Assembly: GCA_022508925.1 (NCBI GenBank) | Contig: JAFLUF010000001.1 | Location: 4,510 to 68,509 of the forward strand | Length of the DNA stretch: 64,000 bases | Source of the DNA: Oscillospiraceae bacterium | GTDB taxonomy: Bacteria > Bacillota > Clostridia > Oscillospirales > Ruminococcaceae | Direction of reading: 5' to 3' | Part shown: positions 34,538-55,144 of the stretch, piece by piece | Layout: every line of letters begins with the position of its first letter | How positions within the stretch are numbered: position 1 is the first letter of the stretch | The notes under the pieces: model-generated | The model's database searches: none | Told to the model about the DNA's origin: nothing | What the model saw: only the letters and a program-made list of their open reading frames with translations | Program-made: the position numbers and the translations under genes

Positions 34538-34577
34538 ATTATAACTCAAAATAATAGACCTGTCAATAGTTTTGACA
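34538..34577 (-). promoter_or_regulatory. Sigma-A promoter of the ter operon with a palindrome at the -35
   Basis: TTGACA(34566-34561)-N17-TATAAT(34543-34538); TGTCAA-N5-TTGACA inverted repeat. Confidence 0.72.
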
Positions 34578-49964: not shown

Positions 49965-49993
49965 TTGACAAACAGGTGTTTGTATGATATAAT
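49965..49993 (+). promoter_or_regulatory. Consensus sigma-A promoter of the small-peptide gene, with overlapping palindrome
   Basis: TTGACA-N17-(TG)TATAAT; ACAAACA-GG-TGTTTGT inverted repeat at 49968-49983. Confidence 0.8.
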
Positions 49994-50053
49994 AAAAATG
50001 TAGCCATGGGAGCGCGGCGGTTAGCTACACCAAGCGAGAGCGAGGTGATGCAT

Positions 50054-50137
50054 ATGCCGATAACTATAACGTTACATATCTTTTGTTTTACCGTAACGAT
50101 TAGAGTTAAAAAGCAGAACCGCCACTCTGGCAAGTGA
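50054..50137 (+). CDS. 27-aa peptide MPITITLHIFCFTVTIRVKKQNRHSGK (candidate type I toxin)
   Basis: GAGGTG RBS 6 nt upstream, dedicated promoter, stop codon inside the terminator hairpin; below the ORF-track cutoff. Confidence 0.75.
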   Translation: MPITITLHIFCFTVTIRVKKQNRHSGK

Positions 50138-50149
50138 CGGTTCTATTTT
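50108..50149. terminator. Bidirectional terminator shared by the peptide mRNA and antisense RNA
   Basis: AGAACCGCCACT-CTGGCA-AGTGACGGTTCT with ATTTT after it on + and GCTTTTT after it on -. Confidence 0.75.
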
Positions 50150-50197
50150 AAATATCTTCACACAAAGAGTCAACCGCCAAGCGGTTTACCTCTCATG
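50108..50197 (-). ncRNA. Predicted ~90-nt antisense sRNA (candidate antitoxin)
   Basis: TTGACA(50231-50226)-N17-TATAAT(50208-50203) on the minus strand with no ORF before the shared terminator. Confidence 0.65.
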
Positions 50198-50267
50198 GTT
50201 ACATTATAACACACTGTCACGCAAATGTCAAGAGCAATTGATGAAATTTTGTAATGAGAGGTAAATT

Positions 50268-50789
50268 ATGGAAAGATTTTGTCCTAAATGCGGTTCGCTT
50301 GTTGAGGGAACGGGTGCGTTCTGCCCTTCCTGCGGAGAGAGACTTGAAAGCGCGGTAAACCTTGAAAAACCCGATGTTATGCCGAGCGCTTCTCAGGGAA
50401 CGATGCCGGGTACCTCAGATCCTATCGTAAACAACACCGTGTCAAATACATACAGTCAGAACAGCCACACCGCGCAGATGCCCAATTATCCGCAGAGCTA
50501 CAACAGCGTAAGCGCGCCCGCCGAGGAAATGACAGTAGGACAGTGGGTACTTACGATCTTCCTGTCGTCGCTCGGAATTATCGGTATCATTTTGCTGTTT
50601 GTGTGGGCGTTCGGTTCTTCCGAGCCTACGGCAAAGAAGAATTACGCGCGCGCTATGCTCATCTGGGAAGCTATAGCGCTGGGAATCGTTATCCTGTTCT
50701 ACGCCGCGATGTTTGCGTGCAGCTTCGGAATGCTGGGCACATTGTTTGACGAGATGTATTATGATTACGCGATGATAGGTATGCTGTAA
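50268..50789 (+). CDS. Zinc-ribbon domain membrane protein
   Basis: FCPKCG...FCPSCG, low-complexity linker, TM helices (WVLTIFL...FVWAFG...KKNYARA). Confidence 0.82.
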   Translation: MERFCPKCGSLVEGTGAFCPSCGERLESAVNLEKPDVMPSASQGTMPGTSDPIVNNTVSNTYSQNSHTAQMPNYPQSYNSVSAPAEEMTVGQWVLTIFLSSLGIIGIILLFVWAFGSSEPTAKKNYARAMLIWEAIALGIVILFYAAMFACSFGMLGTLFDEMYYDYAMIGML

Positions 50790-55115: not shown

Positions 55116-55144
55116 ATTATACAACTTTCAGCCGAAAATGTCAA
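55116..55144 (-). promoter_or_regulatory. Sigma-A promoter of the prfB-ppk1-tag operon
   Basis: TTGACA-N17-TATAAT. Confidence 0.78.

Follow-up and report, generated by a model that had tools for sequence, protein, structure and literature searches.

A probable type I toxin–antitoxin-like cassette family, mobile among gut Clostridia and encoding a predicted β-hairpin peptide

A transmembrane helix defines nearly all type I toxins, and in hok/sok of plasmid R1 and aapA1/IsoA1 of Helicobacter pylori long-range pairing between the 5′ and 3′ ends, together with sequestration of the Shine–Dalgarno (SD) sequence, keeps the full-length toxin mRNA locked. Their genes being too short for gene callers, toxin–antitoxin (TA) systems of type I have barely been charted outside model Proteobacteria, Bacilli and Clostridioides difficile. 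The antisense RNAs of the proteobacterial hok/sok and aapA1/IsoA1 systems bind the 5′ region of the mRNA, and their toxins are helical membrane peptides. In txpA/RatA, bsrG/SR4, bsrE/SR5 and yonT/SR6 of Bacillus subtilis, which are associated with prophages or other mobile elements, the 3′ ends are the only overlap between a small peptide mRNA (toxins of 38–59 aa, hydrophobic helices) and an antisense RNA transcribed convergently with it, and the antisense RNA is expected to promote mRNA decay (PMC6563280). The par locus of Enterococcus faecalis pAD1 has convergent promoters, and complementary terminator stem-loops are common to RNA I, the Fst mRNA, and RNA II (PMC7472228); direct repeats DRa and DRb supply another site of pairing, which covers the start codon, and Fst itself is marked by a transmembrane helix, a Trp and a charged tail. 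The modules of C. difficile (CD0956.2/RCd10, CD2517.1/RCd8 and others) are located in prophages and mobile elements and encode toxins that are hydrophobic at the N-terminus and basic at the C-terminus (PMC6563280). These are peptides of 30–56 aa, in which the hydrophobic N-terminal region is helical and the tail is rich in Lys.

The locus described here lies in the 64-kb window, that is, the whole stretch of DNA analysed (64,000 nucleotides of an Oscillospiraceae genome), and is probably one intact copy of an unannotated, mobile family of type I TA-like cassettes. Its features are as follows.

49965 to 49993, forward strand: sense promoter, TTGACA-17-TATAAT with a TG-extended −10 box, matching the consensus at 12 of 12 positions
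49994 to 50245, no strand assigned: inserted cassette, its extent taken from alignment with the empty site of the closest relative (G010)
50002 to 50025, forward strand: sense 5′ leader, with the 5′ arm of the fold-back, AGCCATGGGAG, at 50002–50012 and the family-conserved GGCGGTTAGC at 50016–50025
50028 to 50047, forward strand: predicted SD-sequestering hairpin, CACC-AA-GC-GAGA-GC-GA-GGTG, based on the fold and on compensatory changes in the family
50042 to 50048, forward strand: SD sequence GAGGTGA, 5 nt upstream of the ATG at 50054
50054 to 50137, forward strand: 27-codon ORF, MPITITLHIFCFTVTIRVKKQNRHSGK, backed by conservation of the ORF, codon signal and AlphaFold2
50114 to 50145, no strand assigned: shared hairpin of 14 pairs, core AACCGCCACTC-N5-AGTGACGGTT at 50117–50142; antisense terminator and site of sense/antisense overlap
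50107 to 50196 (about), reverse strand: predicted antisense RNA of ~90 nt, with a 5′ stem-loop (50186–50172), a spacer, and a terminator hairpin with U-run
50172 to 50200, forward strand: region B as read on the sense strand, with the 3′ arm CTCTCATGGTT at 50190–50200 complementary to the leader; template of the antisense 5′ domain
50203 to 50231, reverse strand (read 50231–50203): antisense promoter, TTGACA-17-TATAAT with a TG-extended −10 box, matching the consensus at 12 of 12 positions

The first-pass annotation of this DNA, made from the sequence alone, had pointed to two perfect promoters facing each other, to a ribosome-binding site and a 27-aa peptide on the forward transcript, and to a reverse-strand RNA of ~90 nt overlapping the 3′ end of the peptide gene. 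All of these elements were recovered: both promoters match the consensus in full, the ORF behind GAGGTGA translates exactly as quoted there, and the predicted antisense RNA, running from ~50196 to ~50107, overlaps the last ~10 ORF codons and folds at z = −5.5 versus shuffles. The shared hairpin spans the codons N-R-H-S-G-K-stop, with the stop codon located in its 3′ arm. Perfect TTGACA-17-TATAAT sites occur five times in the 64-kb window versus 0.01 expected from shuffles. Apart from the two at the cassette, three such sites, at 416–444, 34538–34566 and 55116–55144, all on the reverse strand, each precede an ordinary protein gene; at five per 64 kb, the source genome is unusually rich in perfect consensus promoters.

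Further members of the family were gathered with the hairpin core as bait, so that conservation of the hairpin and of the N-R-H-S-x-K motif is partly by construction. At least 119 stretches of species genomes in GTDB contain the exact core, AACCGCCACTC-N5-AGTGACGGTT, with match titles including Oscillospiraceae, Lachnospiraceae, Acutalibacteraceae, Faecalibacterium, Gemmiger, Butyricicoccus, Roseburia, Agathobacter and Lawsonibacter hominis, and so do 50 IMG/VR viral contigs. Of 401 genomes drawn from across the order, 12 gave BLAST matches to the cassette, in a patchy distribution over five families, and the source genome carries three copies (in the window and on contigs C87 and C50). Conservation of the ORF among homologous loci had been set as a test of the first-pass reading, and it was borne out: an SD sequence, a start codon and an ORF of 20–40 codons (mostly 25 or 27) ending in the hairpin are retained in 158 of the 185 hairpin matches collected. 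A non-redundant set of 74 cassettes with pairwise identity below 88% was used for family-wide comparisons.

Covariance models from Rfam yielded no match at E ≤ 1 in the window region and none at the gathering score in four other members, and searches for tRNA and tmRNA at the window cassette were negative, which rules out identity with a known RNA family, tRNA or tmRNA. Likewise, Pfam and NCBIfam searches with the peptide returned sub-threshold noise only (YrzI, Heimdall-CTERM), ruling out a known peptide family. When the 43-aa upstream-extended frame was compared with a collection of 5.8 billion proteins, one match was obtained, to an unnamed 71-aa over-called ORF. Phage GenBank records contained no DNA match to the cassette, and among plasmid records the sole match was to Vescimonas fastidiosa pMM35_01, in which the stretch is unannotated. 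No paper describing the cassette family emerged when the literature was searched for the peptide motif and for the topic. Although widespread in the dominant Clostridia of the human and animal gut (Oscillospiraceae, Lachnospiraceae, Faecalibacterium) and their phages, the family has no entry in Rfam, Pfam or NCBIfam, in line with the first-pass description of the cassette as unannotated. Some matches (L091, L095, L107, L115 and L137) derive from metagenome-assembled genomes placed outside the Clostridia (titled Synergistaceae, Bacteroidales or Bacteroidaceae); either contigs of phages or Clostridia were mis-binned there, or the cassette was transferred between phyla. In Lachnospiraceae bacterium UBA3287 (L088:396–2206), five cassette hairpins form a tandem array with a spacing of ~450 bp; four of them are linked to intact but differing peptide variants and one to a decayed ORF.

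The peptides of the family are 25–31 aa long and follow the consensus M-(P/R)-I-T-(L/I-T)-x-H-I-(x/G)-x-(F/Y/W)-T-V-T-I-(R/I)-V-K-S-R-N-R-H-S-(A/G)-K. Codon measures were taken from 79 unique ORF sequences over the region outside the hairpin, which was not part of the bait. Entropies at codon positions 1, 2 and 3 are 0.85, 0.48 and 1.49 in the 27-aa class, with 4659 synonymous versus 7844 nonsynonymous codon differences, and 0.19, 0.15 and 0.98 in the 25-aa class, with 3199 synonymous versus 986 nonsynonymous differences; variation at the third position is ~2–5 times that at the first two. The peptide is under purifying selection at the protein level, and this codon-position signal rules out that the ORF is incidental to an RNA element. 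In being both short (27 aa in the window, with <60 aa being typical of type I toxins) and selected as a protein, the product resembles known type I toxins, and it shares with them a charged C-terminus.

By contrast, the transmembrane helix of type I toxins is missing. AlphaFold2 places two 7-residue β-strands at peptide residues 3–9 and 12–18 (block pLDDT ~88), followed by a disordered tail, and the hydrophobic stretch is broken at the turn by Gly and Arg/Lys/Pro. The input for this prediction was the family alignment with the 43-aa extended frame of the window in the first row (the lower limit being 30 aa), in which the strands correspond to residues 19–25 and 28–34. Throughout the family alignment, hydrophobic and Thr/His positions alternate strictly on both sides of the turn. 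Gly8 is almost fully conserved in the 25-aa class (33 of 34) and is followed by a freely variable residue (R, A, Q, P, T); a two-residue turn brings I3/L5/I7 and F10/V12/I14 to one face and (R2)/T4/H6 and T11/T13 to the other; given this alternation around the turn, the hairpin is cleanly amphipathic. The peptide is accordingly predicted to be an amphipathic β-hairpin with a basic tail. Such a fold had been proposed from the residue pattern of the window peptide, with structure prediction named as one way to check its β content, and both the two-stranded model and the alignment, with its near-invariant Gly and strict alternation, agree with the proposal.

Among 140 complete loci, the antisense promoter matches the consensus at 12 of 12 positions in 109 and at 11 or more in 133, and its −10 box ends 57–79 nt from the hairpin. 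The sense promoter is weaker and more variable across the family. A predicted cis-antisense gene, with its own promoter at a fixed distance followed by a terminator, is thus present at no fewer than 133 of the 140 loci. Its RNA would be ~90–105 nt long and consist of a conserved 5′ domain, a variable middle hairpin and the terminator. The 5′ domain has the consensus GGGCnCTGC-GAnAA-GCGGTTAGCCC in an alignment of 72 sequences and is of the same sense as the mRNA leader; its putative stem-loop was read by eye from the alignment. Three pairs at the base of the terminator stem covary (columns 97–99 with 126–128; AU/GC/CG). RNAalifold recovered the terminator stem only, because the variable middle is poorly aligned.

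Complementarity to the mRNA covers the last ~10 ORF codons and extends up to region B if the mRNA reads through the hairpin. At the translation start, the mean duplex energy with the antisense RNA is no better for cognate pairs (−24.4 kcal/mol) than for non-cognate (−23.9) or shuffled ones (−24.9), which rules out a par-like second pairing site at the start codon; in the absence of specific complementarity to the start region, the antisense RNA should therefore act via the 3′ overlap.

The sense RNA appears to be silenced by its own structure. In nearly all 74 non-redundant cassettes, a hairpin capped by a GNRA tetraloop, mostly GAAA, forms in the 34 nt that lead up to the start codon, and across the family the SD sequence is the 3′ arm of this hairpin. 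Compensatory changes maintain it, for example CACCAAGC...GCGAGGTG, CACCACCC...GGGGGTG and CUCC...GGAG, as well as outer GCC/GGC versus GUC/GAC. Upstream of the SD hairpin are found the conserved GGCGGTTAGC and a leader, the latter complementary to the DNA just past the ORF hairpin, region B. Mean duplex energies between leader and region B are −42.5 kcal/mol for cognate versus −28.3 kcal/mol for non-cognate combinations; since cognate duplexes are stronger, the two regions covary. Furthermore, transition mismatches between them are G·U-compatible in the sense RNA in 142 cases versus 39 in the opposite orientation (55 loci versus 6), which argues for pairing within one sense transcript and not for a DNA-level inverted repeat, although the asymmetry could partly reflect that the two 5′ domains differ in composition. 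For the window copy, the 201-nt RNA from 50000 to 50200 folds at z = −5.7 with an 11-bp closing helix (50002–50012 with 50190–50200), and in this predicted fold the SD sequence and start codon are buried.

Such a fold-back requires that the sense RNA reads through the ORF hairpin. The hairpin had been described as a bidirectional terminator. This description fits the window copy, which has T-runs flanking the hairpin on both strands (TTTTT on the reverse and ATTTT on the forward strand), better than the family, in which a T-run of four or more follows the hairpin in 55 of 74 cassettes on the antisense strand and in 11 of 74 on the sense strand. A hairpin with a T-run is found beyond the antisense promoter in 16 of the 74. 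Because ATTTT follows the hairpin, short and long sense RNAs are both plausible at the window copy. Provided that the predicted read-through occurs, the family thus displays the covarying long-range 5′–3′ mRNA pairing typical of hok/sok. That convergent promoters and the terminator would occur together across the family, which the first-pass annotation had suggested checking, is apparent from the antisense promoter and T-run counts given above (133 of 140 at 11 or more of 12 positions, and 55 of 74, respectively).

The two genes of the cassette decay unequally. Twenty-seven hairpin matches have no usable ORF, the ORF being missing or decayed (start lost or truncated), and 23 of these lie far enough from a contig end for the antisense promoter to be checked. 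It is present at the normal distance with at least 10 of 12 matches in 21 of the 23, and perfect in 11, whereas a good antisense promoter is missing from no more than 2 of the 140 loci that have an ORF. Because the bait hairpin belongs to both genes, this asymmetry is not an effect of ascertainment, and it is what would be expected of a harmful product and an RNA antidote. In L137, L157 and L163, an ORF-less second antisense gene, consisting of the hairpin and a perfect promoter, is located 124–133 nt behind an intact cassette, which would amount to two antidote genes per peptide gene. Some 20 further solo antisense genes are found elsewhere.

The type I-like reading follows from a layout that matches published loci (PMC7472228, PMC6563280). 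More than 150 loci combine a small selected ORF, a buried SD sequence, a stronger convergent antisense promoter and a shared hairpin, so that the type I-like layout proposed in the first-pass annotation is supported, although its pairing logic is not that of par. As in par, convergent promoters face one terminator hairpin; however, the hairpin of the cassette is weak in the sense direction, the flanking repeats are inverted with no counterpart of the DRa/DRb pairing site, and the peptide has neither the Fst signature nor a Pfam match to Fst/Ldr. The B. subtilis loci share with the cassette the 3′-end overlap, the association with prophages or mobile elements and the expected antisense-promoted decay; the cassette differs from them in the covarying 5′–3′ fold-back and in its shorter, predicted β-hairpin peptide, unrelated to those toxins in sequence or by Pfam. 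With hok/sok and aapA1/IsoA1 it would share the end-to-end helix, here predicted and covarying, whereas the cassette antisense covers the 3′ part of the mRNA, including the 3′ arm of the fold-back. The C. difficile modules are likewise type I-like, of Clostridia and carried by prophages or mobile elements, with a hydrophobic N-terminus and basic C-terminus, but their toxins have no sequence similarity to the cassette peptide, and the host range of the cassette family is different, namely, Oscillospirales and Lachnospirales.

Our best reading is that regulation may combine SD sequestration, a fold-back like those of hok and AapA1, and a 3′ antisense RNA like RatA and SR4. The sense RNA would start near 50000, from the promoter of a host gene, with the SD sequence and start codon of the 27-codon gene locked in the GNRA-capped hairpin; a read-through RNA would then close on itself by leader/region-B pairing and be translationally inert, like the hok and AapA1 mRNAs. 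The stronger, near-invariant convergent promoter would produce the ~90-nt antisense RNA ending at the shared hairpin, and this RNA, being fully complementary to the sense RNA over its 3′ part, could pair there from the matching hairpin loops onward, to give a duplex subject to cleavage and decay, as in RatA/txpA and SR4/bsrG. If the antisense RNA were lost, the peptide would be made and, with its Ile/Leu/Val/Phe face, Thr/His face and basic tail, might be harmful to the cell, with the inner membrane face as the most plausible site. More tentatively, this could be the first type I toxin family with an amphipathic β-hairpin toxin encoded by an mRNA that joins a hok-like fold-back to a RatA-like 3′ antisense; the peptide might form β-barrel-like pores from the cytoplasmic side, with Thr/His lining the lumen, Ile/Leu/Val/Phe facing the lipid and the basic tail as an inside anchor, or else be a docking hairpin with an Arg-rich tail directed at an RNA or protein target. 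Several points weigh against the type I reading: the peptide lacks a transmembrane helix and strands of 7 + 7 residues are short for spanning a bilayer, it is not similar to any Pfam or NCBIfam toxin family, and the sense RNA of the window, which starts from a host promoter, may serve mainly as the 5′ UTR of the host gene.

The same features of the peptide would fit an antisense-regulated but non-toxic small protein of prophages and mobile elements, i.e., a beneficial or neutral accessory, such as a lysis modulator, a superinfection exclusion factor or a partner of a membrane protein, the level of which is only tuned by the antisense RNA. Some copies indeed reside in phage lysis regions, for instance that of L010 between holin-like and M15 peptidase-like genes, and the hairpin core was found in 50 viral contigs. 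We nevertheless consider this alternative rather unlikely, because no gene partner recurs, because silencing is layered and extreme (buried SD, fold-back and a sense promoter that is outmatched by the antisense promoter), and because orphan antisense genes persist while ORFs are almost never found without an antisense promoter; both the silencing and the decay pattern fit a harmful product better. The L010 copy (1300–1900, genome G037) is located between the end of the holin-like gene and the start of the M15 peptidase-like (endolysin-type) gene of a prophage lysis cassette; its peptide has a different tail (…KKRRNRPQPR), and the stem base AAACCGC/GCGGTTT is retained.

The cassette is horizontally mobile in gut Clostridia and their prophages. 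At the corresponding site of the closest relative, G010, the cassette is absent: the flanks (88–91% identical) match query positions 1–699 and 945–1601 and lie only 48 bp apart. The same TTGACA...TATAAT promoter is present in G010 and G011, where a short 5′ UTR and the ribosome-binding site of the same zinc-ribbon gene come after it. Since it occurs at these cassette-free sites, the forward promoter of the window, although a genuine 12/12 site, is the host gene's own and not a part of the cassette as the first-pass annotation had it; elsewhere in the family, the sense promoter is carried by the cassette itself. The insertion (about 49994–50245) replaced about 50–55 nt of native 5′ UTR directly behind the host −10 box, and homology between the window cassette and the C87 copy starts inside the −10 region. 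No neighbouring protein recurs among the 74 loci, which rules out a conserved neighbour gene of the kind expected for a leader peptide or an operon, and no transposase or recombinase recurs near the cassettes.

Insertion and replacement polymorphism of this kind, with the window copy sitting between a host promoter and its gene, also invites an explanation centred on the RNA or DNA, in which the unit is a miniature inverted-repeat cassette, with its repeats, hairpins and inward- and outward-facing promoters used for mobility or as a portable promoter/terminator for adjacent genes, and the ORF is secondary. Inverted repeats of ~25–35 nt that covary flank the unit, and several copies may be present per genome, including tandem arrays (five in L088). 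This account is improbable in the face of strong purifying selection on the ORF at the protein level, the absence of a recurring transposase or recombinase, and repeat mismatches that lean 142:39 toward G·U in one RNA strand, as befits RNA pairing and not DNA recognition. It is highly improbable that the ORF is a translated leader in which ribosomes finishing it melt the hairpin and decide on transcription into the downstream DNA (here, the zinc-ribbon gene): the stop and last six codons do lie inside a hairpin that is weak as a sense-strand terminator, and the window gene is directly downstream on the same strand, but the downstream genes are not the same, nor in the same orientation, from locus to locus, the sequence of a leader peptide is not normally kept across a family as it is here, and the conserved antisense gene would be left unexplained.

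If the peptide of the type I TA-like cassette is toxic, it would represent a structurally new class of RNA-controlled toxin, a β-hairpin, and would account in part for how prophages and islands are maintained in these genomes; in gut anaerobes that are hard to manipulate genetically, the cassette would also be of use as a small, transferable module for silencing and as a tool for counter-selection. With respect to annotation, the zinc-ribbon membrane protein gene (50268–50789) now has a cassette in its 5′ UTR, and its only evident promoter transcribes the peptide cassette first. With this sole evident promoter preceding the cassette, expression of the gene should depend on read-through of the hairpin, and it could be affected by the antisense RNA.

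The Vescimonas fastidiosa record pMM35_01 (L035, 288–296 kb) contains three cassette-like places, none of them annotated. Although labelled a plasmid, this 861-kb molecule carries rpmH-rnpA-yidD-yidC-jag and metG adjoining the cassette, and in view of these genes it looks like a chromosome-type replicon or a chromid.
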